A stretch of DNA of 64,000 nucleotides from Candidatus Binatia bacterium. Lineage in GTDB: Bacteria; Desulfobacterota; Binatia; Bin18. The notes beneath the pieces were generated by a model. The model ran no database searches, had not been told where the DNA came from, and was given only the letters and a program-made list of their open reading frames with translations. The stretch is from the NCBI GenBank assembly GCA_963664395.2, contig OY761159.2, forward strand, positions 3,232,001 through 3,296,000, written 5' to 3'. Positions 20,474 through 53,250 of the stretch are shown here, one piece after another. Every line of letters begins with the position of its first letter. Position 1 is the stretch's first letter. A program made the position numbers and the translations under genes.

Positions 20474-23400
20474 CTACTCCACAGCCGTCATCACAAAATT
20501 CTGACTGTTCTGTTGCCACTCCAACAGCACGCTCTGCCCCAGGCGCGGAAAGTCGTCCACCACACATTCTCCCTCGGCCCCCCGTAGAAACTCGTGCCCC
20601 AAGGTCGTCACCCGCACCGTGGCCCGGCCCAACTCCACCGCGTCCACGTAGGCCACCACGGTATGCTCCCCCTCCCCCAACAGGTTCCAGTTGAACAACA
20701 ACCCAAACCCATTGTCCGTATCCCCACACACCGCCAGCGTGTCCACCCGTTCCGTCCCATACGCCGCCACCTGCCGCCCGGCAGTCCCAATCGCCAGCTC
20801 GACCGTGTCGGCGTCACACACCCAGCCCGACAGCACCCGGACCCCACTCTGAAAGGAGTTATGCCCCGGATTCTCCAGAACCCCTGTCAGGGCGCTTGTC
20901 CGGCCCGTGGTAGCCCCGGCCGGGGGACTTCCCCCCGCAATCACGAAGTTCTGACTGTTCTGCTGCCACTCCAGGGTCACGTACTCGCCCAGGGTCGGGA
21001 AGTCTTCGGCCTCGCACGTCCCCGTTACGTTCCGCAGAAACTCCTGTCCCAGGGTCGTCACCATCACCGTCGCCCGACCCAACTCTACGCCATCTACGAG
21101 CGCTACGACTTCATGCTCCCCGTCTCTCAACAGGTTCCAGTTGAACAAGAGACCAAAGCCATTATCCGTATCCCCACACGCCCCGGCCGTATCTAACCGC
21201 TCCGTCCCATACGCCGCCTCCTGCGGCACCCCGTTCAACTCGATCTCCACTCTCTCCGCCTCGCACACCCAGCCCGACAGGACGCCCACCCCACTCTGGA
21301 AGGAATCGGCGCCGGGGTTCCCCAGAGTGCCCCGCACGAAGGTGACGACTATGTCGTACACCCCGGTCGCCCCGCCCTGCCCTTGCACGGCCACCACGAC
21401 CGGGCCGGCCTCGACGCGCGCGCCAAGCCGCTCGGCCGGCGGATTGTTCCCTGTAGGGCCGGAGGCCAAGACTGCGTCGTTCTGCCAGATGGTGCCCCGG
21501 GTCTGTACGCCGCCGGTGGTGTCCACAAAGAGGAGTCCTTGGCCGGGGGCGGTCACGGTAAAGTAATCCATGTCGGCTGTGGGGCAGATGGCCCCCACCG
21601 TCACACTAGCCAGTGCAAGACTGGTGGCCTGCGCAGCGCTGTTGCCGTGGACGTCGTCCTGTGGACAGGCGCCACCGCCGCCGCCACCACCACCGCCACC
21701 ACCACCGCCGCCGACGATGGAAGATGAACTCTGCGGGCGGGGCAGAGTCACTGTCTCTTCCGCCGCCACCATCACTGGCTCTGTTTTGCGCGTCTCCTGG
21801 ACGTCGGTATAGGTGACCCTGACCCGCAGATGTTTGCCGAGGTCGGCGTCCACTGGCGTATAGGTGTCTGTCGTGGTCGAGGTGCAGTCGACCATGATAA
21901 TGTCGCCCGGGGGGAAGGTTGGGAATTGGGACCGCTCCCAGCACCAGTCGTCGGGGGTTGTCGGGGCCGGGTTCACGCCGTCCGGGTCGCTCACCGTCGC
22001 GGTGAGTTCTCTCCCCAACTGGGGCTGATTCGACGACAGACGGACCATGCCGAGGGCATCCTCTATCGTGACAGTCACATCCAGGGTCCCGGTGAATGTC
22101 CCGTCGGAGGCTTGCACGGTCACCTCATACTCTTTGTCCGTGTTGTTGGGGTCCTCATAGTCCGGTGACTGCTGGAAACGCAGCACTCCGTTCGAGATGG
22201 TAAAGGCATCTTTATCCGTCCCTTCCACCGACCACGTCAGCCGGACGTTGGCCGGGTTGCGCGCCGTGTACGTGGCCACCGGACTCCTACCACCCTCTCC
22301 GTACGCGGGGGCGGGCTCTCCCTCCACCTCGGGTGGGTCATCATCGGTGATGGTCACGGTCACCGGCCTCACAGTCGTCGACTGCACCCCTTGGGTGTTC
22401 TCCGCCCGCCCCGTCACGGTCACCTGCTTGTCCGCCTCGTCCTCCGAGTTGTTCTGCGCCGTGAGCGTTGCACTCCCCCTACTCTCCATCTCCCCTGCCA
22501 GAATCGTCAGGCTCGTCCCGCTCAACGTAAAGGCGTCGTCCACCGCCGGATGCACCGGCGTTGCCGACACCTCGACCTCTGTATCCTCGCTCGACGGATG
22601 ATTGAGCGTCGCCATCACTGTCGTGCTGCTATCCACGCCACTCTCCGTGATCGAATCCGCCGACAACTCCAACATCACCGTCGGTGGAGCGTCGTTGTCC
22701 GTGATCGTCACCGTCGTCGGCGTCACCGTCAGCCCCGTAGTACTGCCCCCCACCGTCACGGTCTCGTCCGGCTCATCAATGATGTCATTCACCGGCATCA
22801 GGGTGAAGGTCACCGTCCCGCTCGGCTGATCCGCCGCAATCGTCAGCGTGGAGACGTTCGCCACGGTGAAGTCCGTATCCAGCATGGCCGTGCCAGCCGT
22901 GACCGCGACCGTCACCACGGTGGCGGCCGAGCGGGGCGCGCCATCCAACTCGCTCGTCACGGTCACCGTCCTGCTGCTGGTGTCCTCTGACACGGCCTCC
23001 GGGGTCACGCGCAGGGTCACGGCCGTGGACGGACTCTCGTCGTCGGTCACGGTCACCGCCACGGAGGCCGCGCTCTCCCCTGCGTAATCCCCGCCACTGA
23101 CCGTATGCGTAATCGTCGCGGTCTCGGGCGGGACGTTCTCCACTTGGTCGTTGGTCGTCTCCACCGTCACCGTCTGGACGGCGTCCCAGTCCTTGGCCAT
23201 GAACGTCAGACTGGGCTTGTCCACGCGGATCTCCGTGTCGTCGGACGCCACGGAGATCGTCACCGTGGCGGTCGGCTCGGAGTCCAGCACCACCGTGTAG
23301 GTGCCGGTGCTCCCCTCCCGAATCGACAGCATGGCCTTACTCACCGTCACCCCGCGGGTGTCGTCATCCGTAATGGTCAGGTCCACCGGAGCGAGGCCGG

Positions 23401-26400
23401 TCACCAGGCGGTTGGTCGTCGTGCCACTCACTTGCACGGTCTTATTGGGGGCGTCCACGTCGTTGGGCTGAGCTTTCAGCGTCACCGTCCCACTGCTGAC
23501 CGTCGCCCCCGCTGCGATGGTCAGCGTCCGGTTGCTACTCAGCGTCACGTCGCCCGTCGGGGCTGAGACCGTCACGGTCGTCACGGCGCTCGACGCCGTG
23601 TCCAGCTCTGCCGTGACCATGCTGCTCTCCGTGCCGGCCTCGCTGATGGAGGTATCGGACAGGTACAGCTTGACCACCGGCGCGGCCTGCACCGGTGCCG
23701 TCTCCACCGCCGCACTCTTCCCGGCCCCCTGGCGGTCGGTATAGGTCACGGTGGCCCGCAGATACCGTCCCACGTCGGCCATCATCGGCGTATACTGCGT
23801 GGCGGTGGAGACGGTGATATCGGTCCAGGTGCTCTGGTCGGTGGACCACGCCCACTGCCAGGCGATGTCGATCAGACCGCCGTCCGGGTCACTGAGCGTC
23901 GCCGTCAGTTGCTGGCGTTCCTGCGCCGGGGTCCCCGTCAGGGTCACCATCCCCGCTTCGTCCACGTTGACGATATTGATCATCACGGTGATGCTGTCGT
24001 CCGTCGCCGTGTCGGCTGCGTCCTGGTAGCTCTTGCTGTCCCGGACCGACACGGTGACTGTGTAGCGGGGCTTGGTCTCGTAGTTCAGCGCCGCCTGGGT
24101 CCGCAACTGCCCGGTGGACGTGTGGAGGGTGAAGGACGCGGCGTCGGTCCCGCTCAGACTGTAGATCAGCGCCGTGTCGTCGGGGTCGGTGGCCGAAACG
24201 GGGAGGCCGATAGCGACGCCCGTGGCCGTGTTCTCGGCCACGCTGCGGGTCGTGGTGCTGGTGCCGTCATCGAACGCCGGCTTCTGGTTCGGGGTCGTAG
24301 TCAACGCCAGCTGGGCACTGCGCGTGCCTTCCCCGCCGTCCACGACCGCGGCCACCTGATAGACGTAGGTGGTGCCGCCGCGCACGGTGCGATCGGTGTA
24401 AGCACGTGCGGTGAGGTCCTCGGCAACGGCCGCCACGGTGGAGCCGGTGCGGCGGTAGACGGTGTAGGTCACGGCCGGCGGCGAGGTCCAGGGGCTCGTG
24501 ACCGCAGACCAACTCAGCTCCACGAGACCCCTACTAATCGTCACTACTGTCAGGTCTGGGCCGGCGCGGAGCTGATGGCCGAACTCCTGCCAGTCGTCCG
24601 CCCCGAGCGCTGGGTACTGGCTGGCCGTGCCGAAGTCCCAGGGGGCGTCGTTATTGCCGTCGCCGTCCAGGTCTACGTTCCAGTCGGCATAGATGCCGCC
24701 GGTGATATATCCGGTGGGGGTCTGTAATTGCGTGGTGGTTTTGCCCTCGCCATGATTCCCGGTCATGCGGCCTGACGTGTCTGTGTCCCAGTAGCTGGCG
24801 GTGATCGGGCCCTTGTTCTGCCCGACCAGCCCGCCGACATCGGTGCCGCCTGACACCCCCCCGGCCGCATAGCTGTTTGTGATGGTGTCGTCGTTCAACC
24901 CGACCAGCCCGCCGACAAGGGATTTGCCCGAGACGTACTCGGCGGCGTAGCTGGTGTGAATCGTGCCGTCGTTCAACCCGACCAACCCCCCGACAGATTG
25001 AGTGCCTGACACCCGCCCCGTCGCGTAGCTGATGTGAATCGTGCCGTCGTTCAACCCGACCAGCCCGCCGACATCGAAGCCGCCTGACACGCGTCCAGTG
25101 GCGTAGCTGCCCTGAATCGTGCCGCTGTTCTGTGCCCGATCAGCCCGCCGACATCGAAGCCGCCTGACACCCCCCCGGTCGCATAGATGTTTATGATGGT
25201 GCCGTCGTTCCGCCCGACCAGCCCGCCGACAACATTTTCCCCCGTCACATCGACATCGACCACTCCGACAAAGCGAATGGCACCAGACGAGCCTATGGAG
25301 CCGAACAACCCGACGTTATTAGTGCGTCGGTCAATGAACAGGTTCCGGATGGTGTGGTCGTTGCCCTCAAAGGTCGCGCTGAATGGGTTACTGTTCGTCC
25401 CGATGGGCACCCAGCCAGCGCCGCTATTCCAGTACTCGTCGTCCACGTCAATCTGGCCGTCGCCGTCGGTGTCGAAGTCCAGGTCCGCGGCCAGTTCATA
25501 GCCCACGCACTCCCGGTTCCTCGTGCGGCAGACCACCCGCGTCACATTGGGAAACGCCGCAGCATACGCGGTCGCTCCAGCGGGCGTCGGGATACCGTCG
25601 CCGTTTGGGTCGTGCCCCATCGCATCCAACTGCGCCAGGGTCGCAACTTCAAGCAGCCCGTCAGCGTCCGTGTCGTACAGCGGCTCCGGGGTATTGTTCG
25701 TTACCGCCAGTCCAGAGAAGGCGGCCATCAGGTTGCCAGCCACATCCCGAAGCGGCCGCGTCCCCGGTGTATAGCTCAGCGTCACGGCCTGGTCATGGGC
25801 AACATGGGAGTCCAGCGTCATCGTCACAGTCCGCCCGGACACTACGACGGAGTTGACCGCTACCCTCGTACCATCGGCGGTGACCGTCAACGCGCTCGCC
25901 GCCGGCACTGACAGCTCGTCCAGTGCCTCGTTACACGCCAGCGTCACGGTGTCGCCGTCCACAACCGGAAAGAGCACCGCCGTCGGCGCGACGCCGTCCA
26001 CGGCGTGGCTGCTGGTGGCCTCGATTGCATCATGGTTGAGCCCGGCGTCCCGGTTCGCGGTGTCCTTGATCGTCGTCCCACTGGGCAGCGACAGGCTGTT
26101 CGCGAGCATAGTCACCCCTTCGGGACCTCTCTGGTTGACCGCCACGGTGTAGGTGAAGACCAGCACCTCACTCGCGCTTCGGTCGGCCTGATACACCATC
26201 TCATATGATAGAAATCCGATCGTCAGCGCGATGCTGGGTGTGCCGGTCACAGTGATGGGCTTGGTGAAGACTACCGCGACCGCAATCTCCTCCCCCGCTG
26301 CATATCCCCCCCGGGGGTCTGAGATGAGCGCCACCGTGCTGACGCTCGGCGCAGCCGTGGTGGTAGGGTCGTTGTCGGTCAGCGTCACCGTGGCGGTAGC

Positions 26401-27612
26401 CTGACTGCCGACCGCCACCCCTGCGGGCAGCGGTGCGCCAAAGCCCAAGATCACCGTCTCTTCGTCCTCTTGGCGGCTGTCCTGATTCGCGCTGAAGGTG
26501 AAGGTTCGTGAGGTCTGGTTCTCCCCAAAGGTGATGCTCGCCGGGAGGGTATAGTCGCCGGGCCAGGCGCCGTCCGTACTTGTCGCGGTAAGCGGAATGG
26601 GCAGGTCGAGCGTACGCCCCGGCGCGGCGTCCAGCCGCACCGTCACGGGTACCGTTCCGCCTTCGGTCACCGCGTATGCCCCCGCATCGAAAGAGACCTT
26701 CACGGCCCGGCCCTGCCGGAATTCGGCCACGGTCGTGCGGGTTTCGTTGAGTCTCAGCGCGGCGTTGGCCGGCCCATCCACCGCATTCGTGGTCTGGGTG
26801 CCAGCCACACCCATGGGATCGCCGTTGTTCCTTGGGTAGGAATTGGACGGGTTTGAAAAATAGAGCACCCTCTCACAATCGAAGCGAGGATTATTTTGGC
26901 TACACTGAGTTTTGTACGCCATAATCGTGGTCCAGCGCTTGGAAGTCGCCGCGCCCTCCTCGAACGCCTTCTGGTTCACATAGCCGTAGGCGTAAGGATA
27001 GTTTGGGGGACACAGAGGATTGTCAGTATCGTGCCGACATTCTACATACCGGTCGTGGCGAAGCCCCATGAGGTGGCCCAGTTCATGAGCGAAGATACCC
27101 GCGTCGGCTATGGAAACGCCAAAGGCAAGGCTAGCGAATTTCGTTGATCGCGCGCCCATGAAATTCGCGAGTCCGCCGTCCCGCGAGCGGAGCAGAATGA
27201 CAGCGTCCGCCCACATCCGGTCACGGATGGTGTGGACTTCGTCCATATAGCCGTCCGACTTACTCTGAAGACGGTCGAGATCGACATACATCGCGTCAAT
27301 GGCTGTAAAAGCCGACCCTGTTGACATCGACTCGGTGTATCCCACCACCTCCTCCACGGCCACCAGATTAATGGTCTGGCTCACACCGCTGTCTGCGTAG
27401 GCCATATTGGTGGCGACGACCAGCTCATCGATCTTGGTCTTGATCTGCGCGGTCCCGCCATGGGCGGTTTTGGCCTGAGGCGTGTAAAAAACGGCGACAT
27501 CAATCACCGACTCCGACTGCGCGTGTGCAGTGCCAGCCAGGAGGGGCAGCAGCAACAGCGCCAGGAGCAGCACGCACTTGATGTTGGGGGAAGAAAGAGT
27601 CCAGGGCGGCAT
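20474..27612 (-). CDS. Giant exported Zn-metalloprotease/adhesin (M12/M72-like protease, Calx-beta-like, SwmB-like, GLUG, FN3, cadherin, poly-Gly, PPC-like, 2x conserved C-terminal domain); frameshifted at ~25131
   Basis: Signal peptide; HELGHLMGLRHD; GGLVG GLUG repeats continue across ORFs 25051-27612 and 20474-25090 once a CA duplication is removed; LNYE/PDYE cadherin motifs. Confidence 0.85.
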
Positions 27613-28244
27613 CAGTGCTGGTGGTCAGTCTCGGAATAGAGCGCATCCGCCCCGCAGTCGAGCGGGGGCTCTTCCACCTCGCTAATGGCATACAGGCCGT
27701 CGCCCACCGAGCGGATCTCGTAGAGTTCGCCCAGCAGCCGCACCGTGCCCGCCACGGCCTCCCCATTGACGACCAGCGTCATCGTCCCGAGCGGCTCTTC
27801 AACCAGATGGCCCGCTACGGAATAGCCGCCCGAAAACGTGGGGGCCGTCCGCTCCACCAGGCCCGTGACGACCACATCGTCGAACAGATTGAAGGTCAGC
27901 GTCGTACCCGGTGCGGGTGCCGAACTGGATTTGTCCGTGCGCGTGGACGTGCCTTTGGTGTGCGCCGTCTGGCCGGGAGGTCCGGCGACGGCGGCTTGGA
28001 CTTGCGTCAGGTCCATGGTCACCATCCGGCTGCGCACCGTCAGATCGTCGGACGCTAGTGCCGGCGGGGGTGGCGCATTGACGGGCGTAAAGAGGTCGGC
28101 CGCCTGCCCCTCGACCGGGGGGGCGCCCAGTACCGCCAGCAGCACCCCCATGCCGGCGGCGAGGCAGCGGGGGGAGCACACGCGCCAGCCCCGGCCTCTC
28201 CTGGCGGTGTCATCAAAAGAAACTCTCATCGCCCTAGCCTTCAT
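27612..28244 (-). CDS. Exported metalloprotease-prodomain-like protein
   Basis: Own signal peptide; LTFNLFDD..GTVR..YEIR..PLDCG resembles reprolysin-type propeptides; TGATG overlap with the protease gene. Confidence 0.7.
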   Translation of the reverse strand: MKARAMRVSFDDTARRGRGWRVCSPRCLAAGMGVLLAVLGAPPVEGQAADLFTPVNAPPPPALASDDLTVRSRMVTMDLTQVQAAVAGPPGQTAHTKGTSTRTDKSSSAPAPGTTLTFNLFDDVVVTGLVERTAPTFSGGYSVAGHLVEEPLGTMTLVVNGEAVAGTVRLLGELYEIRSVGDGLYAISEVEEPPLDCGADALYSETDHQH

Positions 28245-29069: not shown

Positions 29070-29183
29070 GCAGGCGCGCGTGCACAGGACGGTCTGCCAG
29101 GAGACGATCTCTTGCCGATACCGATAAGCCACCGGCCATGAATGTGCTCTGCCTTTGCGGGCATGAGAGGGGGGGCAAGTCCC
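29070..29183 (+). repeat. 114-bp conserved 3' flank, second copy at 31288-31401
   Basis: Near-identical sequence immediately downstream of the stops of two family genes. Confidence 0.9.
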
Positions 29184-31061
29184 CTACTCCACAGCCGTAA
29201 TCATGAAGTTCTGACTGTTCTGTTGCCACTCCAGCGTGACGGATTCTTCGTCACCCGGCCAGTCTTCCACGATGCAGGTAGCAGGCAAAATATCTCGCAC
29301 AAACTCCTCGCCCAGGGTCGTGACGGTAAAGGTTGCTCGTCCAAATTCGACATTATCCGCATAAGCTACGACTTCATGCTCTCCGTCACCCAACAGATTA
29401 TAATTGAAGAGTAGTCCGAACCCGTTATCTGTGTCGCCACACATCGCCTCGGTGTCCATTCTGTCGGTGCCATACGAGGCCACTTGTTTCTCTCCGTTCA
29501 ACTCGATCTCGACTTCCTCGGCCTCGCATACCCAGCCCGAAATGAGTCCAACCCCGCTTTGAAAGGAATCCATTCCTGGATTCTCCAGAGAGTAAACAGG
29601 AGATTCCGGTCCTAATTGGGTTTCATCGTCAGGGCTAGAGTCAGGAGTCGTATTTGTTGAAGAAGAATTTCCACTTCTGTTTCCGCCGCCGCCGCCACCA
29701 CCACCACCGCCGCCACCCGTGCTCCCGCCCGTACTGCCACCTCCACTACCGACACTACCGCCACTACTTCCGGTCCGTGTTTCTACTGGAGTTGTAGACG
29801 AATCGGTCTCTTCTTGCGTCGGTTCCGGTTCGGTACAACTAGGATCATCCCACACTGTTACATCAGGAACGCTTTCAATGTGTGTAGCGCTTTCTGTAAA
29901 GTTCGAGGGCGCGGGGGAATGAGGCCAATTTATAGTAGGCGGACCACAAGCCTCATTCACTAAATCAATGACCCGAATGGTAAAGTCTGCCTCGTCCACT
30001 CCGCCATCAGCATCCGTTACCCGAAACGTCAAGTGGTATTCACTTTTAGTTTCATAATCAAATGCCTGTGTCGAATACATCAATCCATTAGGTCGGCCGT
30101 TTCCAGGATCAACACTGCCAGAAAGCATGCGGAACGCTGAAGCATCTACACCTAACAGCTCATAGGTCCAATCATTACGGGCACCGTCTATGTCTTCCCG
30201 ATCTTCCACGTCCGGCCAGTCACAACAGATAACAGTATCAGCCGGGGCATTTTCAAAAATGCGCAAGTTGCTCAGGTCCGATTCCTCAATCACGGGAAGA
30301 TTATTGACTGACTCATCTTCATCAGTCACGTACACGCGAAAAGTGTTTGAGATCTCCAAGGATGAATCAGAAGGTCGTATGACGCTCGAAGACCCACAGG
30401 AAGTTACCTCTGGTTGGGCATCTCGCTTATCCCACGCTGTGATGGTGTATTCATAATACGGTCCCTTTTCGTCTACAAAGGGTGCTTTCTCGTAGTCGAA
30501 ACCGCCGCCATATCTCACAAACTGTACGAGTCCCGCGTCATACGTCCTTGCGTCTTTATGAAAGACGTATCCTTCCTCGCTGAAAGGATGCGTGGGGTGT
30601 GTTCCAGCAGTTATCCCAATACCGCCAGCACGCATACTTACTACGCCACCGCTTTCAACAAGGTAGCAAGTGGAAGGGTTTTCAAATGCGAAGTCCCTGT
30701 CAAAAAGGGGTATCTGATGCAGGTATCCTGAAAAATGGCCCAATTCCAAGTCCGCTCCAGATGAAGCCCATCCGTACCATTCCGAAAGTGTGAGGGTATA
30801 GTCTACCCCAGGGTCGCCCAACGCTCTTGGCAGATGGCGATGGTCCTCATCTTCGTCATACAGCCTTGAAGAATCAGAATGGTAGGGGTCGGGCTTAATA
30901 TCGACCACGCCGCGTTCACAGCCATTTGTGCTCAAAGTGTAGTCCTCTTCTAAGCAGGGGTTGCCCCTGTGCGCTTCCGCATAGGGCGCTAGAAGAAACA
31001 TGAAACCAAACAAAATAGACAAAAACATAAGTGGTCCTTTTCTGCTTTCTTTATTCGACAT
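29184..31061 (-). CDS. Exported cadherin-domain protein with Gly/Ser linker and 1x conserved C-terminal domain
   Basis: Signal peptide (..LLAPYAEA), IFENAP..FDYETKSEYHLTFRVTD cadherin motif, LENPGMDSFQSG..WQQNSQNFMITAVE; start uncertain. Confidence 0.8.
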   Translation of the reverse strand: MSNKESRKGPLMFLSILFGFMFLLAPYAEAHRGNPCLEEDYTLSTNGCERGVVDIKPDPYHSDSSRLYDEDEDHRHLPRALGDPGVDYTLTLSEWYGWASSGADLELGHFSGYLHQIPLFDRDFAFENPSTCYLVESGGVVSMRAGGIGITAGTHPTHPFSEEGYVFHKDARTYDAGLVQFVRYGGGFDYEKAPFVDEKGPYYEYTITAWDKRDAQPEVTSCGSSSVIRPSDSSLEISNTFRVYVTDEDESVNNLPVIEESDLSNLRIFENAPADTVICCDWPDVEDREDIDGARNDWTYELLGVDASAFRMLSGSVDPGNGRPNGLMYSTQAFDYETKSEYHLTFRVTDADGGVDEADFTIRVIDLVNEACGPPTINWPHSPAPSNFTESATHIESVPDVTVWDDPSCTEPEPTQEETDSSTTPVETRTGSSGGSVGSGGGSTGGSTGGGGGGGGGGGGNRSGNSSSTNTTPDSSPDDETQLGPESPVYSLENPGMDSFQSGVGLISGWVCEAEEVEIELNGEKQVASYGTDRMDTEAMCGDTDNGFGLLFNYNLLGDGEHEVVAYADNVEFGRATFTVTTLGEEFVRDILPATCIVEDWPGDEESVTLEWQQNSQNFMITAVE

Positions 31062-31247
31062 CCGTAATCGCAAAGTTCTGAACGCTCTGTTGCCATTCCA
31101 GGGTAACGGTCCTGCCCAGCGTCGGGAAATCTCCAACAACACATTCGCCTTCAACGCCACGCAGAAACTCTTCTCCCGTGGATGGTGTAGTCCCCGACCC
31201 CTGGATAAGAGTCCTATACTGCTACAGCAAGGACGCGGTCCTTGTCC

Positions 31248-31287: not shown

Positions 31288-31401
31288 GCAGGAGCGCGTG
31301 CACAAGACGGTCTGCCAGAAGACGATCTCTTGCCGGTACCGATAAGCCACCGGCCATGAATGTGCTCTGCCTTTGCGGGCATGAGAGGGTGGGCAAGTCC
31401 C
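31288..31401 (+). repeat. 114-bp conserved 3' flank, first copy at 29070-29183
   Basis: Direct sequence match. Confidence 0.9.
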
Positions 31402-34400
31402 CTACTCCACATCCGTAATCACAAAGTTCTGACTATTCTGTTGCCATTCCAAGGTGACCGTCTGGGCCACTGTCGGGAAGTCCTCAACGACACATTCCCC
31501 CGCGACCCCCCGTAGAAACTCTTCTCCCAGGGTCGTCACCCGCACCGTGGCCCGGCCTAACTCTACGTCATCCACATAGGCGACGACTTCATGCTCCCCG
31601 TCCCCCAATAGGTTCCAGTTGAACAAGAGGCCAAACCCATTGTCCGTGTCCCCACACGCCGGCTCCGTGTCCACCCGCTCGGTGCCATACGCCGCCACCT
31701 GCCGCCCGGCGGTCCCAATCGCAAGCTCCACCGCGTCGGCGTCACACACCCAGCCCGAGAGCACCCGGACCCCACTCTGAAAGGAGTTATGCCCAGGATT
31801 CTCCAGAACCCCCGGCAGGGCGCTCGTCCCGCCCGTGGTGACACCGGCCGGGGGACTCCCCTCGGTAATCACAAAGTTCTGGCTGGTCTGCTGCCACGCC
31901 AGCGTCACCGTCTTGCCGAGCAGGGGGAAGTCGTCCACCACACACTCGCCCGCCACGCCCCGCAGAAACTCCGCGCCCAGGGTCGTGACCGTCACCGTGG
32001 CCCGACTGAACTCGATGTCGTCCACATAGGCCACGACTTCGTGCTCGCCTTCGCCCAACAGATTCCAGTTGAACAACAACCCAAAGCCGTTGTCCGTATC
32101 CCCACAGAGTTCTTCACCCTCCTCCGTATACTCCGTGTCGGCTCGGTCTGTGCCATACGCGGCGAACTGCCGCCCGAGGTGCCCAATCGCAAGCTCCACC
32201 GCGTCGGCCGCACACACCCAGCCCGAAATGACGCCGATGCCACTTTGAAAGGAGTCCGGGCCGGGATTCTCCAGATTGCCTGGCAGTACGGTCACCCGGA
32301 GGGTATAGCGCCCGGTCTGGCGGCCATTGCCCGCCACGGCAATGACCACTGGCCCGGCTTCGACCCGCACGCTGAGCCGGAAGTTCTGCCCCGCCCCGCC
32401 ACTGTCGGCGGTGGCCAGTTCCTCCCCGTTCTGCCACACCGTCCCCATAGTAGCGGTGGACCCGGTGGTTTCGACCGACAGAATGCCCGCGTAGGGCGCG
32501 TCGAACTGAAAGTAATCCCGGTCGCGGGCTGGCGCGATCTCGCCCGAGGTGGACGAGGTCGGCGCGATGGATGTCGCCGCCCCTGCACTGTTGCCGTGCA
32601 CGTCGCGGGACTGCCGCCGCCACCACCACCGCCCCCGCCCCCACCGCCGGTACCCGTCCCGCCGCCACCAGGTGGGGGCGGGACGGGGATACGGTGGGCC
32701 GCGGGCACTTTCGATAGCCGGGTGTTGCCGGCGGTACAGATGCCGCCAGCCACACAGGACTCGCCGGTCACCAGGCGGAAGGTGAGTTGAGCATTTCCGG
32801 CGGGACCCAGGGTGAAGAGGTAGGCGTGGGCCGCCTCGCCCGCTACGAGATGCGGCGCGACGCTCACGACCGTGCCACCGGTGACACTGACGGATGGGGT
32901 GTCGGCAGCGAAGTCTACTACCGGCTGATTGAACGCCACGACTACCGTCGGCTGACTCGACGGACCGGTGTGGAAGCCAGAGTTGGACGCACTGGCCGAG
33001 ATCGTCGCCGTCAGCAGACCGAGCTCGTCCGCCAAGGCCGCTGACGGCACCGGGTAGGCCCGGGTGGGAAGTACGACATCGCTCTCGTCATAGGTCATCG
33101 TTATTGACAGCACTTCCTCGCCAGTCTCTGGGTTCACCTCGGTGATCGACTCGTCGGGAGGAAGCGGGGTATTCGGGTCATCATCGAAAGTCCCCCTCCC
33201 CCAACTGACCAGCCAGTTTCCGCTGTCCAGCAGCTCGACATGACCCTGAGACCGCGCATGCCTGTTAAAAGCCCTGTGGAGCGAATGGTGGCGTTGGAAG
33301 GTCGCTTCGCCTGCATCGACATCGAGCGCATACTCCACCACTCTGCTGAATTCGCCGCCGGTCCGCGTGCTGTCACTCGTTTCCGGATCAACGAGGCAGT
33401 GGCCGCCGTTGTCGAAGAGCAGGAGATTCCCATTGCCCGTCATCCGTGCCGCATGTTGTCCACAGAACTCTCCGTAGGGATCGTTCAGAATCGTCAAGGG
33501 CGGGGTGCCGCCCCCGGCAACCCAGTCCTCTTCGCTCCGGTTGCTCTTGCCCAACCGCCAGATCACATCCCCGCTCGTGCCATCAATTCTCAAAATCTGT
33601 GAGCAACCCCTGAACGAGGCGATAATGTCTCCATCGGCTACGTCGAGGGAGTTGATGTGAGCGTAATCCCAGGGGAAACGGTGCTGCGTACAGTCCTCTA
33701 TGGCCATGTGATCCCAAGAATTCCATAAGAAAACCTGGCTCCCTCCCGGCGTCACTTCCTGAATGACCGAATCTTCCACGCTCTCATCACTCGTGCAGGG
33801 GCCTGGCATTCCAGATCCAGATCCGTAGGGACAGGTCAAGTCTGTGAGGTCCCGATGATCGGCGGGCTCATAGCCCATGAGCACATAGTTCCCATCATTC
33901 TTGATGACGAAGTCGTGGTCGTCGGTATGCGTTAATGGTGTGACGACCTGGACCCTGTCTGCCTCCTCAAGCTGATCGTCCAACACTACGCTTTGGGTAT
34001 TTTGAAGTAGGTCAGCCCTCCCCGTGGCGTTACTGGGGATGGTCGTGCCGGTTCTTCGGGCATAGGAGTAGGGGTATTTACCATTTCTATGAAACTTGAA
34101 GGAGGTCCCCCCGCCTTCGCTCAGTCTCCGGCGGAACCGTGGCACTCCGTTGTTGTCAATAATCGCGAGGTACGCGTCCTCCCGTCTTGCGCTTATCGTG
34201 ATGAGGCCATCCGAAGCTCCCGCTGTTTTGGTAGCCGTGAGGCGCGGGAAGTCGTCAGCCAGACAATGGACGACATAGGTCGTGCTTGCACCGCTGCTGT
34301 TGCTGAGCACGATGTCGATGTCATTCTCGCCATCGAGTCCCGTCAGTTCGACCTCTCCATTCTGATTCGCGACCTGTCTGCCGTTGACCGCCACGCGCGT

Positions 34401-35836: not shown

Positions 35837-35855
35837 ATAACCCTGTCCGGGGACC

Positions 35856-35963
35856 ATGGACGCGGCCCTCGCCCACACCAATCCAAACAAGGTAGAAGCG
35901 GCCTATGCGCGCTCAGACCTGTTTGCACGCCGGCGGACACTCATGGAGCAGTGGGCGGCGTAC
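35856..35963 (+). pseudogene. C-terminal remnant of a P4-like tyrosine integrase
   Basis: Translates MDAALAHTNPNKVEAAYARSDLFARRRTLMEQWAAY (box II LAH..Y and C-terminal helix). Confidence 0.8.
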
Positions 35964-36337: not shown

Positions 36338-36354
36338 CCCCCGGCCGGTGGGAC

Positions 36355-42108: not shown

Positions 42109-42129
42109 AGGACCCGCTCACTCCTCTTT

Positions 42130-42603
42130 TTATAGAGTCAGTATGAAAAGAACGGGAAGATTGCCTGCTGCCAGTGGGCGGCGTATTTGACCGAGGAACG
42201 CGGCACGGTCGTGCCGCTGGTGCGACGAGGGTAAGCTCCGAGCGACCAAACACGGGTGGTCATGGCCAGGGTTTTTATGCACCGGGTGATGGGCACTCTG
42301 CAAAAAAATGGGACTCTTCCGCTTTGGACTTATGGGCCGTCTTGCCACACCGTGCCCACCGTATCGACCCGTCCCGTGGTCTCGACCACCAGCGTCCCGG
42401 CTGGGGCGGCGGGGACGGTCGGGCCACCCCAGGACCGGCAAGGCACTAGCGCAGAGCAGAAAACGCTCCCACCTGCCGAGAACCGAGCCGAGGGTCTGTC
42501 CGAATGTGCGGATGGACTGCCGCATGTCACCAGGCGCTACATAATCTGAACGGGCAGGGGCGGGTCGCCCGGCTGCCATACACCACAGGCGTGTCAAAAA
42601 CAT
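42130..42603 (-). pseudogene. Decayed family member (PPC-like fragment)
   Basis: APAGTLVVETTGRVDTVGTVWQDG matches the PPC-like domain of 31402-32601; frames broken; box copy 6 upstream. Confidence 0.55.
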
Positions 42604-42738
42604 GCACGGCTCCTCCTCTTCCAGCCACCTCTCCGTCCTCTGCCGAGCTGTTGGTGTGGCGGCACGGCGTCGGTGTGGATGTTGCGGTCACCGACCCCCA
42701 GGGAAGGCCCCTTATAATTCAATGCCGTAGCCCGGCCC

Positions 42739-42757
42739 CCTATCAAATGGTAGAAAA
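42739..42757 (-). promoter_or_regulatory. Palindromic box copy 6 (CCTATCAAATGGTAGAAAA)
   Basis: One mismatch; lies between the luxR stop and the decayed gene; TATAAG 22 nt downstream on the - strand. Confidence 0.72.
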
Positions 42758-42774
42758 ATAACCCCGCCCTGGGG

Positions 42775-43911
42775 TCAGACGAACGTGGCGACCGACAGCA
42801 CCAGCCGCACCAAGTCCACCTTCCCGGAGAGACCCTGCTTGTGGTAGATTTGATGCAGGTACCACCGGACCGAGCGTTCCGTATACTCCAGCGCCACAGC
42901 AATCTCGCGTACGGTCTGGCCTTCCGCCACCCAGGCCGCGATCTGGCTCTCCACCGGTGTCAGCCCCAGGGTCACGGCCACTAGGGCAGGGTCGATGTGG
43001 GACACCAGCCCCCGCTCGACCAGCAGCACCTGGGCAGCCACGCGCCCCGCCCCAAAGTCCATCTGCCGGACCCCCACCGGTTTGACGTGCACCACGAACG
43101 GTGGCAGCGCGGACGCGCGGTGGAGCCGCATTGACCCACTGACGGCGGGCGCACTGGAGGTCGGCAGTGCGGCGGCGACCAGCCGCTCCAGGCAGGCATG
43201 GTCAGCCGGCACGCGGGCGGCCAGCACGCCGCCCCGGTCCATCAGCCCATCGCCGTTTTGCAGGATGGCATGGGCACGGTCATTGGCCTCCACGATCTGC
43301 CTACGCCGGTCCAAGTAGATGACCCCGATCCGAGAGATGTCGAGCAGGGCGGTCATGGACGCGCCCAGTGCTTCGGCTTTGGCCAGCGCCTGCCGGATGC
43401 GGACAAATTGCCGGATATGGGGCAGTAGCCCTTTGACCAGCGTGAGTTGCGAGGACTCCCAACCACCTGGGGTGACCGGGTCAAAGGGGTGCCAGGCAAT
43501 ATGGGAGTCGTCAGACCCGTCCAGGCGGACATTCAAGCCATCCTGGCAATGCCAACGGGGAAACGCCTCGTTGTAGGTCGGCGAGGTCTTCAACTCTTGG
43601 GGGATGTACAGGGCGGGGGTGTGCACCACGCGGCTGTCGGGCAGTTGCCGGAAACGCGGTATGCCTTCGTTGATAGGGTGGTAGACTTCAAGGTACTCGC
43701 GCTCCCAGTCCTCACGGCGCTCCCCCCGGTAGTAGGAGCCGAGGAAGAAGACCCGGCTATCGTCCTGTGAGCCTTCGCGAATTATGAGGGAGTTGCCCAC
43801 CATGCCGCAGGCATCATCAATCAGCGCCGAGGTGGCCGGCCATAAGGTATCGTCAAGCATGGCGTCGTATAACGACGCCAGGATCCGCTCAAACGCGTCT
43901 TGGTCACTCAT
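42775..43911 (-). CDS. LuxR-type HTH transcriptional regulator with N-terminal sensor/PAS-like region
   Basis: C-terminal LTPVESQIAAWVAEGQTVREIA..SVRWYLHQIYHKQG; PAS-like GVIYLD...IVEANDRA. Confidence 0.9.
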   Translation of the reverse strand: MSDQDAFERILASLYDAMLDDTLWPATSALIDDACGMVGNSLIIREGSQDDSRVFFLGSYYRGERREDWEREYLEVYHPINEGIPRFRQLPDSRVVHTPALYIPQELKTSPTYNEAFPRWHCQDGLNVRLDGSDDSHIAWHPFDPVTPGGWESSQLTLVKGLLPHIRQFVRIRQALAKAEALGASMTALLDISRIGVIYLDRRRQIVEANDRAHAILQNGDGLMDRGGVLAARVPADHACLERLVAAALPTSSAPAVSGSMRLHRASALPPFVVHVKPVGVRQMDFGAGRVAAQVLLVERGLVSHIDPALVAVTLGLTPVESQIAAWVAEGQTVREIAVALEYTERSVRWYLHQIYHKQGLSGKVDLVRLVLSVATFV

Positions 43912-45273: not shown

Positions 45274-47324
45274 ATGACTTACCGGACAAAGGATACAGAC
45301 ACTATCTGGAAAGGATACAGCGCGGTGGGCGTGGGCGGCATTATCCTGTTGCTCTTCCTCAGTTGTCGTCTGGCCTCCGCCCAGGCAACGCTGGAAAATC
45401 CCCAGCTGAACTCTCGTTTCAGAGCGGTATTAGCGTAATCTCGGGCTGGGCGTGTGACGCGATTGCGGTCGTTATTGCCATCGATGACGATGAGAACTTC
45501 GACGAAGATGCCGACGGATTTGCCGATGCCGATGTCGAGCTGCTATTCCCAGTCTATGGCACAAGCCGAGGGGATACGATGGGCGTGTGCGGTGACACCG
45601 ACAACGGCTTTGGAGTGTTATACAACTGGAATAATCTCGGAGATGGGGTGTATACCGTGTGGGCGGGTTATGTAGGGCTAGATTCCGATGGAAACTCCAC
45701 GACGACCCTGTCTGCCCCGGTTGCGGTCACTGTGACGACACTCGGCTATGAATTTCTCAGGGGCGTGGAGAGGGAAGCAAGCTTTACGGGCTTTCCGTCT
45801 GCCGGAGACGGAATCAATCTTCAGTGGCAACAGAGTCTCCAGAATTTCGTCATCCGAGGGACTGCTAGTGCGAGCGGTGGTAATGCGGGCGCTCCGCCGA
45901 AGATTTTAGAAAATCCTCAGCCGGGGGCGTTTGTGAGTGGAATCGGTACCATCTCGGGCTGGGTGTGTGATGCCAACACGATAGAGATCGAGTTTGATAA
46001 TGACGCGGCCAACAGGTGGCAAGCGGGTTATGGGACGGCGCGAGTGGATACGTATGGTGTGTGCGGTGACGCCAACAACGGCTTTGGGCTGTTGTACAAT
46101 TGGAATAATCTCGGAGATGGCATTCACACTGTTCGTGCTCTCGCTGACGGCGTAGAGTTTGCCAGTGCAACGGTCGCGGTGACGACATTCGGAGAAGAAT
46201 TTCTCAGGGGTGCCAGCGGCACCTTTACGGTATCCGACTTTCCTCAACCTGGGGTCAGTGTTGATCTCCTGTGGCAGCAGAGTCAGCAGAATTTTACCAT
46301 CTCCAGAGTCTCCGGAGATGGGTCTGAGGGAGTACGCGCTGGTTTAGCGGCACTGAAGGCTGGCAATATGCGTGAAGCCAACACCGCTTTTCGTCGGGCA
46401 ACGATAAACGACCCGGCCGACACGACCGCCGGCTTCTATCATGCTTTGACCCGAATTCTGACAAAAGTGATTGACACGCCCCAACTCAGAGAACTTGCTC
46501 GTCGTAGCGATATATCCCTCAGTGGCGATGCCAGTGACGTTTGCCCGTTGGACCTCTCGCTTCCGAAAGATTTTCCGCACAGCGCCCCGCGAACCGAAGA
46601 GATCCTCGACGCCTTGCGAGATGTCCTCGTACCAGAGATTGATGCGGCTCTCACGACCCTGAACGGACTTCCCACCTCCATGGAAGTTCCTTTTGTTCTG
46701 GGGAATCTACCGCCCTGCTTGTCGGGAATCGCTGATGATTTTGTCGTCGAGATTGACCGGAGTGATGTGCAGACGCTCATCGCCATCTTACGGGCAATCC
46801 GGGGCGCGTCAGCAGTTCTTGCCGCGTATGACGTAGATGTGAGTTTGCAAGTGCTAACAACATCGACCCTGCAAGAAGTCCTGGCCGCAGAACCGACGAT
46901 TCTTTCCTTAGTGTCGCGCACACGTCTTTCGTCGGCACGGACGTTCTTTGACCAAGCCTTAACACAGGCGAGCCAGGCTATTCAGTCGGCTTTGGCGGAG
47001 ACGGACAGTCAAGCGGACGACCTCCTTGTTATTACTCCAGGGGATATTTCAGACGCCCAACGTCTCAGGCGGACTCTGGATTTCGTACGCCAGTCCTTGT
47101 ATGGGACCGTCGTACTACCGACAGATATTGGTCTCAACGATCCTGAACGACTGAACTTGAGTCTATTCTTTTCAGGTCGTCTCGGAGCGTTACGGTCGTT
47201 GGTGCCGGCTCCTGACGGGAGCTTCCCTGATCCGACGTTCGGCGGAATGGCTCCGGACTTAACGCAGCAAGATATCGAGGAATACCTCCCGGAGAAGGTC
47301 CTGACGTGGTTGAGGCGTGAATGA
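45274..47324 (+). CDS. Exported protein with 2x conserved domain at the N-terminus plus a helical C-terminal region; frameshifted at ~45411
   Basis: Signal peptide ..RLASAQATLENPQLNS continues as FQSGISVISGWACD if a CT duplication is removed. Confidence 0.8.
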
Positions 47325-48070
47325 TAAGCGCGACACAAGTCTTCAGAGGAGTCCGATTAGCGCGTTGGCTTCTCTGTGTCAGTGTCCTGAGCCTATGCTT
47401 AGGTGCTATCCTGTTGAGTTTTTACAACCAGCGTGAAGAACCCACCCTTTCTCCCAAGACTGGTGCAAGCGTATCTTTACAAGAATTTCGGACCACGCTG
47501 CTTGCGAACGGTCGTCCTCAGTTGCACGTCTCTGGAGACTCATTACGCATTTCTAAAACGCGCCTTATAGGTCCATTTCGCCTCGGCTTCATGCACACCC
47601 TTAAGGGGCAGAATATTGCGATTGAGATCGTTGATATGGCGGAGTTTGAAGCGACTCAATATACAGGTGATTCCGCCTTTTCGCCTCAACACATTCTCTC
47701 CCGCCTTGCCCCACAACAGACATTGGGGATCATATCCAGGATTGACCTGCAATCTGTCTCCTTGCAACTCAACCGAGACGAGCAGTTTTTTCTGAGTCTC
47801 TCTGCCGACCGCGCACAGGTCAAGCTCGGCAGTCCGAAGGTGAAGCTCCGGGGACATGTCACATTACGTTCTCATACCGGAGAGCGGCTCAGCGCGGAGG
47901 AGATGCGCTGGGACCAGCAAAATAAGGTCCTTGAGGTGGAAGGGGACTATGTCTTGGCAAGGCCCCACGCAGAGCAACGGGGCGCCAACGCATCATTTAT
48001 CGTCGACCGGAACGGTGCTCTGAAACGCTATTCCCGTACCCCACGAATTGCTCTCGGTGAGACATCGTAG
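47321..48070 (+). CDS. Membrane-anchored protein with LptC-like C-terminal region
   Basis: N-terminal TM helix; VKLRGHVTL..GERLSAEEMRWD..K pattern; ATGA overlap with the upstream gene. Confidence 0.5.
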   Translation: MISATQVFRGVRLARWLLCVSVLSLCLGAILLSFYNQREEPTLSPKTGASVSLQEFRTTLLANGRPQLHVSGDSLRISKTRLIGPFRLGFMHTLKGQNIAIEIVDMAEFEATQYTGDSAFSPQHILSRLAPQQTLGIISRIDLQSVSLQLNRDEQFFLSLSADRAQVKLGSPKVKLRGHVTLRSHTGERLSAEEMRWDQQNKVLEVEGDYVLARPHAEQRGANASFIVDRNGALKRYSRTPRIALGETS

Positions 48071-48094
48071 GCGCTCAAAGTCTTGTTCAGCCGC

Positions 48095-49713: not shown

Positions 49714-49722
49714 GCTACTCTC

Positions 49723-51153: not shown

Positions 51154-53250
51154 ATGTTCTTGATTAGCGTAATCGCGGCGTGTGTGTTGACGGCCAGTCA
51201 TGCCCTGGCGGTTGAATGGGAAGTCTGGTTGTCCGACCAATCGAATAGTGCCGATATCAGCACCGGGAATCCCACCGGAACTTTTGGCAGCCGGATTCTC
51301 ATCTACGAAGGCCGCGACATCATGATGGCGCAGCCCGGAACGTATGCTGAAGACCATGAGGAATTTGCGCCGGCTGTCATCGAAGCGGACGATGTCTTTC
51401 CACACGCGTTCTCAGAACTCGGCGCGAATGTCGAGCGTCTGCACGGCATGTTCCCGCATCCGTCACATCGATATATGAATGCGAACTTTTTTGGGCCGGG
51501 CGTTGGGCTGGTGGGCATTATCGATGCGGAGGGACAATGTACGCTGTCTGGCAACGGGTTCAAGCAATGTGGACCGATTCAAGGGGGACCGCGTGAGGCG
51601 GAGAAGTTGGCCAAAGCTCTCTTTCGGACCACTGGACCGGAAGGCTCCGCGCCCTCGAATCATATGTCTTATTTCAGTCTGGACGGCACTAAGCTGCTTG
51701 TGGCCAATCTTGGCGCAAAGCTGTTGGAACGCATTGATTATGATAAGGAGACCGGCACCTTCATTTTCAACAAAGCGGCCACGCTCGATTTGGTGGGGGG
51801 CCGAGACCTAACCGCTATGGAAGCGATGGCCGATTCCACCTTGCCCGCCGGGCAGGTGAGCGGGGAGTATACCAACTTCCAAACGATGGACACGCCAAGC
51901 GGCACACTCAAGGAAGGGCCGGGACGGCCCAATAACGTCCTGGTTTGCGCCCGACCCAGCAGCAACAATCAGCATGTGTATCTCACGCTCGGCGGTGGCG
52001 GACTGTTTGTGGTTGATATGACGACCGAACCGATGTCCATCGTTGCCGAATATACCAATGACGTCATCAACGGCGCCGGGTGTGGCGGCGATGAAGGGGG
52101 TGGCTTTATATATATCAACGCGGGTGTGTCCGCGAGTGCCGCCGGCGCGGATGACTCCGTGTTCATCATGTATCGGCTGCCGCTCGACTATCCTGATGGC
52201 GCCAGCCCTCTCACAACGCCTAATATGCCGCGGCCCGTGAAATTTTTGGAAGAGAAAACGCTGGGGATCACCTCTGAAGAGGATTTAGCCAATCGCCGTG
52301 ATGCCCACGGCATGATCATCTCACCCACCACCGGCCGATATCTCTATCAGGCTGATCGAATCCAAAACGTCATAGAAGTCTTCGATCTGGGCAAGATTAT
52401 CAACGATCCCGACGCAACGCTGGAAGAGCAGGCAGCAGCACATGCGGGAACCATCGACCTCACCGGGTCAGAATGGTGTGTCGGCGAAGGAGCGCCCTTT
52501 GTCAATCAGGATGATGAAGACTATGAATTCAACGACGATCCTGCCCCGGACTCCATTGATGTCTCTCCCGATGGCAGCAGGCTCATCGTCTCCTTCCGAG
52601 GTCCACATCCCGTCTCCGTGAAGCACGCGGCCTTGGGCAGTTGCGGTGGGTTCGGGGTGGTGACGCTCAACGGCGATGGATCAAATGGAACACTAAGCCA
52701 CGTGTTCCGCACCTTCCTATCTGACGAGACCGGCACCAAAAACCTGAGTGACATTCATATGACAGTCATACGGATCAAAGGCCCGAATGTCGTGCCCCCA
52801 TTCCATCACAGCGAACCGCCAGTGTCTACTGAGCCGCAGCCGGGAAGGTTGGAGAATCCGGGACCGATGTCATTTCAGAGCGGCATTGGGTTCATTCACG
52901 GCTGGGTCTGTGCAGCCGACGAAGTGACGATTGAGATCAACGGGCGGGCGCAACCTGCGGGCTATGGGATGGCACGGTTGGATACCAAACCCGTGTGTGG
53001 CGACACGTATAACGGCTTTGGGTTGTTGTTTAACTGGAATCTGCTGGGGGATGGGGAGCATATGGTGGTGGCCAAGGCGGATGGGGTAGAGATCGGCAGA
53101 TCGACAGTACAGGTGACAACGCTGGGGCAGGAGTTCCTGCCAGACGTAGTAGGCGCGTGTGAGCTGACAGACTTTCCGAGGGTAGGTGAAACGGTCACAC
53201 TGGAATGGTTAGAGGCCGTGCAGAATTTCGCGATTACCGAGAGGCGGTAA
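51154..53250 (+). CDS. Exported beta-propeller-like protein with 1x conserved C-terminal domain
   Basis: Signal peptide, SLDGTKLLVAN and DVSPDGSRL blade-like motifs, LENPGPMSFQSG..CGDTYNGFGLLFNWNLL. Confidence 0.8.
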   Translation: MFLISVIAACVLTASHALAVEWEVWLSDQSNSADISTGNPTGTFGSRILIYEGRDIMMAQPGTYAEDHEEFAPAVIEADDVFPHAFSELGANVERLHGMFPHPSHRYMNANFFGPGVGLVGIIDAEGQCTLSGNGFKQCGPIQGGPREAEKLAKALFRTTGPEGSAPSNHMSYFSLDGTKLLVANLGAKLLERIDYDKETGTFIFNKAATLDLVGGRDLTAMEAMADSTLPAGQVSGEYTNFQTMDTPSGTLKEGPGRPNNVLVCARPSSNNQHVYLTLGGGGLFVVDMTTEPMSIVAEYTNDVINGAGCGGDEGGGFIYINAGVSASAAGADDSVFIMYRLPLDYPDGASPLTTPNMPRPVKFLEEKTLGITSEEDLANRRDAHGMIISPTTGRYLYQADRIQNVIEVFDLGKIINDPDATLEEQAAAHAGTIDLTGSEWCVGEGAPFVNQDDEDYEFNDDPAPDSIDVSPDGSRLIVSFRGPHPVSVKHAALGSCGGFGVVTLNGDGSNGTLSHVFRTFLSDETGTKNLSDIHMTVIRIKGPNVVPPFHHSEPPVSTEPQPGRLENPGPMSFQSGIGFIHGWVCAADEVTIEINGRAQPAGYGMARLDTKPVCGDTYNGFGLLFNWNLLGDGEHMVVAKADGVEIGRSTVQVTTLGQEFLPDVVGACELTDFPRVGETVTLEWLEAVQNFAITERR

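Follow-up and report, generated by a model that had tools for sequence, protein, structure and literature searches.

What might be the task of a single protein domain that recurs on a series of exported proteins with otherwise unrelated sequences? The question is raised by a 64,000-nucleotide stretch of a Candidatus Binatia genome (the window, C1:3232001-3296000 of a 5.04-Mb assembly in 14 contigs), where six genes encode exported proteins that carry, between them, ten copies of a domain of ~130 residues. An interpretation made earlier from the DNA, here called the sequence-only reading, had seen in this domain a candidate surface-sorting or anchoring system. The results described here define the domain as a family of its own, attached to either end of enzymes and adhesins throughout the genome. 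They tentatively suggest a binding module, often arranged as a tandem pair (the twin), that would tether the exported proteins of the bacterium to its own envelope.

A six-frame regular-expression search of the whole window for the core motif CGD..NGFG..N.N matched exactly 10 sites, and the string NGFG occurs nowhere outside them in any frame. Delimited by LENPG and QNFVI, the copies comprise 129-146 residues, share 36 invariant columns and are 52-82% identical to the first copy, with 60-81% identity among them at the DNA level. A profile built from the ten copies scores each one at E values of 1e-54 to 6e-72, which rules out chance as the origin of the domain family. On the minus strand lie both copies of gene 1 (20939-21325 and the terminal 20489-20878, followed by the protein end TAVE 4 residues past the domain), the sole and terminal copy of gene 2 (29199-29588) and both copies of gene 3 (31867-32274 and 31417-31806). 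The plus strand holds both copies of gene 4 (41254-41643 and 41704-42093), both of gene 5 (45396-45833, carrying a 15-aa acidic insert, and 45906-46301) and the sole, terminal copy of gene 6 (52849-53235). Motif search, alignment and profile thus recover the ten copies at the positions given by the sequence-only reading, with its distribution over the six genes (2, 2, 2, 2, 1 and 1) and with its placement, C-terminal in five genes and N-terminal in the sixth, the gene starting at 45274.

The domain is named in none of the libraries searched. Pfam found nothing on the domain-bearing tails of eight open reading frames (ORFs) of the window, and on 65 copies it gave, at E ≤ 5, only scattered noise (Big_7 in 3/65, best E 0.021; DUF3869 in 4/65; CarboxypepD_reg in 2/65). 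An NCBIfam scan of five proteins including their whole tails returned no family at E ≤ 0.1, a profile search of all PDB sequences returned no match at E ≤ 10, and the precomputed Pfam annotation of 120 listed public homologues covers the tail in none of them. The only source name among these 120 is 'hypothetical protein [Desulfurellaceae bacterium]', and full-text literature searches on Binatota, sponge symbionts and secreted proteins found the module described nowhere. These absences mean that the domain has no known relative, not that its fold is new. From a 65-row alignment, AlphaFold predicts a confident beta-sandwich at residues 8-95 with a short helix at 45-51 (pLDDT 82), while residues 96-130, a C-terminal extension of ~35 residues, are left unmodelled. 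The best structural neighbours returned by VIA, at Z 6.7-7.8, are the Ig-like C-terminal domain of a mannanase (Z 7.8), CBM48 of SNF1/AMPK (Z 7.6 and 7.3), a CBM48-esterase (7.5), sulfite-oxidase dimerisation domains and CBM20/26. Its wide structure search gave none at Z ≥ 8, and Foldseek gave none in the PDB at E ≤ 0.001 (best E 6.1e-3). The comparison with CBM48 and CBM20 (Z 7.3-7.6, rmsd 2.5-4.7 over 70-72 residues) is at the level expected of a common fold.

In the ESM Atlas the neighbours are unnamed clusters with Big_7 in 11-66% of their members, at a recognition value under the reliable range, and one divergent copy (locus L122) reaches 24.7 bits against the Big_7 cut-off of 24.1 without any single stretch passing it. 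Our reading is that the domain is a new family within the bacterial Ig-like/E-set world, with its own signature and an extra C-terminal segment; the uncatalogued status and the Ig-like character that had been suspected at the outset are both upheld. New as a family, the domain has a function that we infer below from its residues, its placement and its distribution. In the public representative P0003 (402 aa) neither of the first two copies has the ~35-aa extension, each being followed immediately by the LENPG of the next copy, so that the Ig core can exist without it. A model of the tandem pair has a mean pLDDT of 63 and a pTM of 0.43, with the linker and both C-terminal extensions below 50; the homodimer prediction of the single domain scored 0.12 and 0.10 against a mark of 0.42, which speaks neither for nor against self-pairing.

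Certain residues are conserved throughout the family. Cys21 is present in 753/753 full copies and Cys51 in 751/753, and the pair fits one disulfide, in support of the earlier suggestion that the module is disulfide-bonded. A third cysteine (profile column 105, within the unmodelled extension) occurs in 550/753 full copies, and 553/753 have three cysteines in all. Across 305 distinct tandem pairs the third cysteine is found in both copies of 230 and in neither copy of 74, with a single discordant pair. This pattern of both or neither fits a disulfide between the copies, which would explain the pair as a unit, and such a bond probably links the third cysteines of the pair in the most frequent subfamily. 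Outside the sandwich core, a polar-rich set of invariant residues (R44, D46, T47, D53, N56, G57, F58, N63, N65, G70 and H72) clusters in the helix-loop that follows strand 4 and in the turn behind it; judged from the alignment, it looks like a metal- or sugar-binding site. The end of the chain is conserved as well: among 306 distinct C-terminal ends, 245 stop exactly 4 residues beyond the profile, and 197 of these read [TSA]-x-[VIL]-[EQ], TDVE alone accounting for 89. An exact and conserved C-terminus leaves room for a terminal or export signal.

In the genome as a whole, the profile of the window copies found 138 matches, and hmmsearch on stop-to-stop frames gave 145 hits; these fall in 86 frames and reduce to 67 loci. 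The 86 domain-bearing frames make up 4.3% of the genome, and the 50-kb bin of the window is the richest of all bins, with 7 such frames; a very large and lineage-specific expansion of the domain across the genome thus reaches its local maximum in the window. Among the 70 frames with a full copy, the domain lies at the extreme C-terminus in 54, directly behind a signal peptide in 12 and elsewhere in 4, and 16 further frames hold fragments only. Fourteen of the 67 loci consist of more than one domain-bearing frame, split inside the tail, which indicates that breaks are frequent in this class of genes. All 12 N-terminal-type frames begin with a signal peptide ending 3-15 residues before the domain (LENP), and 21 of the 27 C-terminal-type frames of at least 1000 aa show, by a rough criterion of our own, a start resembling a signal peptide in their first 100 codons; the remaining six include known 3' fragments of broken genes. 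By reading, the cleavage sites resemble those of signal peptidase I (A-x-A) and not lipoboxes.

The passengers are diverse. Behind an N-terminal module are found a GDSL lipase (conserved as an orthologue group from one genome to another), an FGE-sulfatase domain, a beta-lactamase fold, a staphylococcal-type nuclease, CARDB repeats and Cache domains. Ahead of a C-terminal module, in public data, are sulfatases, arylsulfate sulfotransferase (ASST), M12, S8 and M14 peptidases, cadherins, LRR, SRCR and fn3. One protein (C1:3781032-3783038) has four copies of the domain and little besides. Pfam, the genome frames and the public homologues therefore all bear out a family of exported proteins with interchangeable passengers, and the passenger kinds (sulfatase, ASST, proteases, cadherin, LRR, SRCR, fn3, GDSL lipase and nuclease) fit matrix processing and adhesion. 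In 25 of the 54 C-terminal-type frames the first copy is directly preceded by a further module of ~110 aa, which was searched for with our own hidden Markov model built from three window examples. We call it PPC-like: one of the three window examples matches PPC (PF04151) over profile positions 1-69 of 70 with an E value of 0.0025, at 19.1 bits and thus under the cut-off of 25.9, and the other two have no PPC match at E ≤ 1.

Placement at either end of the chain, together with the occurrence in pairs, argues against a C-terminal sorting signal and for a binding or tethering module. The sorting tag of the sequence-only reading, likened to the C-terminal domain of the type IX secretion system (T9SS) or to PEP-CTERM, is not sustained by these data, given the module behind the signal peptide in 12/70 full-copy frames and in many public proteins, the lack of a membrane-spanning tail and the lack of an enriched transporter, peptidase or sortase-like family beside the genes.

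The family has a narrow range. A search of 1.84 billion representative proteins returned 2,849 at E ≤ 1e-3 and 1,162 at E ≤ 1e-30; in the best 150 of the 2,849 the match lies at the chain end or at approximately residues 30-160, and 145 of the 150 have two matched stretches. When one genome per species was considered, 290 stretches encoded a relative, and the 78 loci kept come nearly all from metagenome-assembled genomes (MAGs) titled Candidatus Binatia or Binatota, the exceptions being one 'Thermodesulfobacteriota' record, one Competibacter, one Acidimicrobiia and two 'Enterobacteriaceae'-labelled loci from one MAG. The genome of the window shares its coded genus with such Binatia MAGs, and hit coordinates and E-value coincide between G670 and G401, the genome of locus L031. 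The domain was found in 0/400 other genomes in an even sample of the phylum and in 68/401 genomes of the class sample, where it occurs in 49/54 genomes of family f1, 16/20 of f114, 1/1 of f112, 1/19 of f115 and 0/306 of 16 other families. The presumed lineage specificity is thus confirmed, the carriers of the class belonging essentially to two families (f1 and f114). Five other carriers have 14-57 matches each, and the 138 of this genome are the highest number seen. Genus g1 counts 25 carrier genomes. Three of five same-genus genomes carry the domain, with 8-43 tail matches each. The other two, the complete genomes G110 (4.2 Mb) and G678 (4.1 Mb), have no domain copy, show 1-3 weak matches to the PPC-like part only, and lack the LuxR paralogs described further below as well as both passengers tested (GH97 and ASST); they are natural nulls for comparative genomics.

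The copies are ancient and maintained. In 36 pairs of window copies the median pS is 0.69 and the median pN 0.20; dS is saturated in 9 pairs, and dN/dS is 0.09-0.26 in the 27 where it is not. Diverged synonymous sites and low dN/dS identify the copies as old paralogs, each kept by purifying selection, and not as products of fresh conversion. A tree was built from 115 full copies in this genome. In it, the first and the second members of C-terminal pairs are separated by 7 changes against 15-29 in 200 shuffles (68 rows), and N-terminal and C-terminal types by 7 changes against 16-23, contrasts of placement that kinship among the copies inflates. So few changes indicate that pairs are inherited as units and that the two placements are largely separate subfamilies. 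The passengers behave differently: GH97 is found as a passenger in 0/5 same-genus genomes and ASST in 1/5, with no tail-less orthologue of either in the two null genomes, and passengers turn over fast while the tail persists.

The interpretation that we favour, as a good possibility rather than a probability, sees in the twin a self-contained binding module, exported with its passengers, by which the exoproteome would be tethered to a common ligand of the cell's own envelope. Each copy would consist of an Ig-like (E-set) beta-sandwich of ~90 residues and an extension of ~35 residues, with a Cys21-Cys51 disulfide pinning the loop that presents the invariant polar residues R44, D46, D53, N56, N63, N65 and H72. 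The working unit would be the pair, stapled in the commonest subfamily by the putative third-cysteine disulfide between copies and fused, through a Gly- or Pro-rich hinge and often a PPC-like module, to either end of ~70 Sec-exported enzymes and adhesins. Outside the cytoplasmic membrane the twin would hold its passengers non-covalently on one common ligand, most likely a glycan of the bacterium's own envelope or coat, and the whole exoproteome may thereby stay on or near the cell and not be washed away.

Several observations weigh against this interpretation. Binding, ligand and location are all things that we infer, and every structural match lies below Z 8 and short of a Foldseek E of 1e-3, no closer than a common fold would give. 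The PPC-like module is part of about one C-terminal tail in two, and modules of the PPC type are known from proteases as extensions that are linked to secretion and cleaved off. The exact chain end is more than a plain binding module needs, and tethering offers no explanation for it. The FGE-type enzyme that carries the module might be expected to act in the periplasm and not at the surface. As for the inter-copy bond, the state of the third cysteine changed only ~3 times on the tree, so that independent changes are few, and 32/49 single-copy proteins keep this cysteine with no partner in the chain.

The strongest alternative, which we consider somewhat unlikely, is that the twin targets the substrate or host: it would bind a polymer of the host matrix, such as a sulfated glycan or a collagen-like protein, in the manner of a CBM or PKD module on a hydrolase, and enzymes and adhesins would be concentrated on the substrate and not on the bacterium's own surface. 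The passengers are indeed typical matrix-acting enzymes and eukaryote-like adhesion domains, yet one invariant module on a nuclease, a lipase, a beta-lactamase fold, FGE and LRR fits a common address better, and the place of CBM48, CBM20 and CBM26 among the best structural neighbours rests on a similarity at chance level for a common fold. In favour of the host reading, near-identical DNA occurs in public runs of 8 studies labelled with 7 coded organisms (among 24 such runs no RNA run is listed), and MAG names such as jk18x..bins match the naming in a sponge (Ircinia) metagenome paper (PMC9531527). The Competibacter MAG, on the other hand, has 14 matches. Competibacter is known from wastewater sludge, and the presence of the module in a genus of this kind would make a host-specific ligand unlikely.

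Unlikely as well is an arrangement, peculiar to two Binatia families, in which the disulfide-stapled twin is an address tag that docks the ~70 enzymes and adhesins of a cell on one receptor, an envelope glycan or protein, and so builds a cellulosome-like coat processing the host matrix, the T-x-V-E end and the two domain-free same-genus genomes marking its gain or loss as one unit. The dockerin-cohesin pairs of cellulosomes resemble the twin in that one small tag gathers many enzymes, but neither dockerin nor cohesin is matched here and no scaffold protein was identified.

It is quite improbable that the tail is instead an extension for export or folding, which a secretion route of the outer membrane (type II or other) would recognise in the periplasm and which may later be removed, as happens to T9SS C-terminal domains and PPC domains. 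The conserved chain end and the PPC-like module ahead of so many C-terminal twins would suit such a role, as would the Ig-like C-terminal domains of T9SS (one at Z 6.2 in the fold list), but the module is N-terminal in 12 of 70 frames and in many public proteins and no NCBIfam sorting-tag model matches it. Secretins are present in the genome, yet they are as numerous in the domain-free genomes of the genus (2 each) as in carriers (2-3), no transporter family is enriched within 6 kb, and known signals need less than the two complete folded domains that selection maintains. Self-association, in which domains of different chains would bind one another, possibly through the third cysteine, into a cross-linked coat or multi-enzyme array, is very improbable: the odd number of cysteines per copy, the retention of the third in single-copy proteins and the protein of four copies fit it, and nothing direct speaks against it, but the third cysteines of tandem pairs can bond within the chain without a partner.

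The tethering module that we favour has parallels among known systems. SLH, CWB2 (of the Clostridioides Cwp proteins), LysM and choline-binding repeats are likewise tandem modules at either end of unrelated exported passengers, better conserved than the passengers and expanded within lineages. Pfam finds none of these families in the window ORFs or in 65 copies (SLH, PF00395, is not matched), and the twin is an Ig-like sandwich as opposed to the helical SLH or the CWB2 fold; the bacterium that bears it, judged by its relatives, is a diderm for which no secondary polymer of the cell wall is known. In T9SS, the C-terminal domain (Por_Secre_tail, TIGR04183) is an Ig-like sandwich of similar size at the chain end, behind a hinge and with a defined end, whereas the twin is also N-terminal, is paired and matches no NCBIfam or Pfam model. 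The lineage lies outside the groups known for T9SS. PEP-CTERM/exosortase, LPXTG/sortase and GlyGly-CTERM were considered and rejected, as the chains end in T-x-V-E 4 residues past a folded domain, with no hydrophobic stretch and no NCBIfam match. With Big_7 (PF17957) and the Ig-like/E-set modules including CBM48 and CBM20 the twin has its fold class in common, while the motif WVC...R.DT..CGDTDNGFG..FNWN, the putative disulfide and the 35-aa extension are not features of theirs as far as the searches show. The PPC and PKD modules of secreted proteases of marine bacteria are also beta-sandwiches behind the catalytic part of exported hydrolases; those occur on few proteases per genome, in contrast to a twin that has no PPC match and sits on ~70 proteins of all kinds.

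A domain that no library names is present in approximately 4% of this genome and in thousands of public protein clusters, and the proteins concerned are currently annotated by their passenger alone or as hypothetical. A Pfam or NCBIfam model from these alignments would improve the annotation of Binatia genomes at once. A common tether, if true, would define the working surface of a widespread lineage of uncultured symbionts and tell which enzymes and adhesins act outside the cell. The module, small, foldable and probably disulfide-bonded, would then serve as a handle for receptor pull-down and as a probe with which the bacteria and their products could be traced within the host's tissues.

The six genes of the window illustrate the range of architectures. 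Gene 4 (36529-42108, plus strand) is intact in one open frame and reads, in order, signal peptide, CE2_N/Big_12, GH97 (N, catalytic and C parts), SWM repeats, poly-Gly hinge, PPC-like module (40870-41253, directly before the twin) and twin, ending in VDVE. Gene 1 (20474-27612, minus strand) encodes a signal peptide, a reprolysin-type M12 protease, SWM/Big_5, GLUG repeats, fn3 and cadherin according to Pfam, followed by a long Ig-like stalk, a poly-Gly hinge with the PPC-like module (21326-21715, minus strand, directly before the twin) and the twin. Gene 3 (31402-35681, minus strand) has Calx-beta/cadherin-like domains, ASST, a poly-Gly hinge, the PPC-like module (32275-32601, minus strand, again directly before the twin) and the twin, and ends in TDVE. 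The two single-copy genes are gene 2 (29184-31061, minus strand), with a signal peptide, a cadherin-like region, a Gly/Ser hinge and a terminal copy ending in TAVE, and gene 6 (51154-53250, plus strand), with a signal peptide, a passenger of ~560 aa with a weak propeller hint, a Pro-rich hinge and a terminal copy ending in TERR. Gene 5 (45274-47324, plus strand) is of the N-terminal type: its signal peptide, ending in ASAQA, is followed at once by LENPQ and the twin, and then by a helical domain of 340 aa with a weak TPR hint, which retains 72-73% identity in loci L106 and L108.

These details modify the sequence-only reading in part. All six genes are present, but genes 1, 3 and 5 are not single open frames in the assembly, each being split by a 1-2-nt frame break. 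Signal-peptide-like N-termini were claimed for all six, and in gene 2 the signal peptide begins at an internal ATG near 31061 and not at 31412. Among the passengers, reprolysin M12, GLUG, cadherin, ASST and GH97 have Pfam support, the fucosidase-like assignment has no match, and the beta-propeller and helical domains have sub-threshold hints only. Gene 1 consists of two ORFs (25051-27612 and 20474-25090) with the break at ~25131-25137 inside a GLUG repeat. Dropping 2 letters at 25131 restores the expected repeat GGLIGQNSGTIQGSYATG in one open frame, and contigs of the public runs X1 (1/1) and X7 (depth 32/96) lack these 2 letters, which makes the break an assembly error or a strain difference; run X5 has no such gap (depth 11), and run X3 has no coverage there. 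The ORFs of gene 3 (32292-35681 and 31402-32601) part at ~32600-32620, just past the Gly tract, within which the X1 contigs stop, with loose ends at 32614 and 32648. In gene 5 the ORFs 45274-45390 and 45363-47324 part at ~45385, right after LENPQ. The remaining genes of the window (amidase, luciferase-like, CoA-transferases and SbcCD) appear intact. Contigs of X5 and X7 join 35852 to 42791, which would delete gene 4; with 28 letters on the short side, the join may stem from a repeat or another organism and was judged too weak to use.

A separate partner was sought among the neighbours. The sequence-only reading had raised the prospect of a co-occurring transporter or peptidase; there is none as a separate partner in the window, a scan with our own script for families enriched at up to 6 kb from the 86 frames found no transporter, peptidase or sortase-like family, and none of the candidates tested tracks the domain across genomes. 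Three things stood out within 6 kb, namely a LuxR regulator, an FMO-like flavoprotein and passenger pieces of broken genes. The LuxR-family regulator of the window (42775-43911, minus strand) has a GerE helix-turn-helix at 317-370 and a weak PAS hint. All 8 full-length members lie within 6 kb of domain frames (P 6e-7), and 9 of 9 paralogous loci within 2,350 nt of one, a distance that covers 9.7% of the genome; the others are at C1:106432, 114602, 267619, 1912963, 2009388 and 2816358, C3:17533 and C9:195 of this genome (G000). The regulator adjoins domain genes in other genomes too (L041 and L059). As an obligatory partner it was rejected: its N-terminal part occurs in 54/401 class genomes, including 12/27 of the domain-free family f118, and it was not found in many carriers, e.g. 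G742, G694, G809 and G710. The secretin family (PF00263) does not discriminate either, being present in 5/5 genomes, both domain-free ones included.

FMO-like flavoproteins lie beside the FGE-type members, 9 of the 13 in the genome being within 6 kb of a domain gene (P 4e-5). In this genome, genes for a signal peptide, one domain copy and an FGE-sulfatase stand beside FMO-like flavin monooxygenases at C1:1727000-1734500, C4:4136-9254 and C1:3101885-3105640. Gene H (47321-48070, plus strand) overlaps the stop of gene 5 and has an N-terminal membrane helix and an LptC-like match at E 0.058, under the Pfam cut-off. Its synteny with the gene-5 type is kept in L106 and L108; with a presence in only 18/55 genomes of the family, it was dismissed as a core partner. 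An ORF of 210 aa with its own signal peptide (27612-28244, minus strand) overlaps the start codon of gene 1. Its paralogs in this genome (C1:1912211-1912777, 784311-784928 and 1755105-1755566) occupy the same position ahead of two further giant genes and, in one case, form part of a small M12-plus-twin protein; by its sequence context, the 210-aa protein might serve these proteases as a partner resembling a pro-domain.

Between a LuxR regulator and the next gene there is often a 3' relic of the domain. In the window, the spacer between genes 3 and 2 holds a relic of this sort (31054-31221, minus strand), consisting of profile positions 92-130 followed by TDVE and a stop. The ends of the same two genes share a 3' stretch, 29070-29240 being repeated at 31288-31458 (171 nt, 93% identity), which extends ~115 nt beyond their stop codons.

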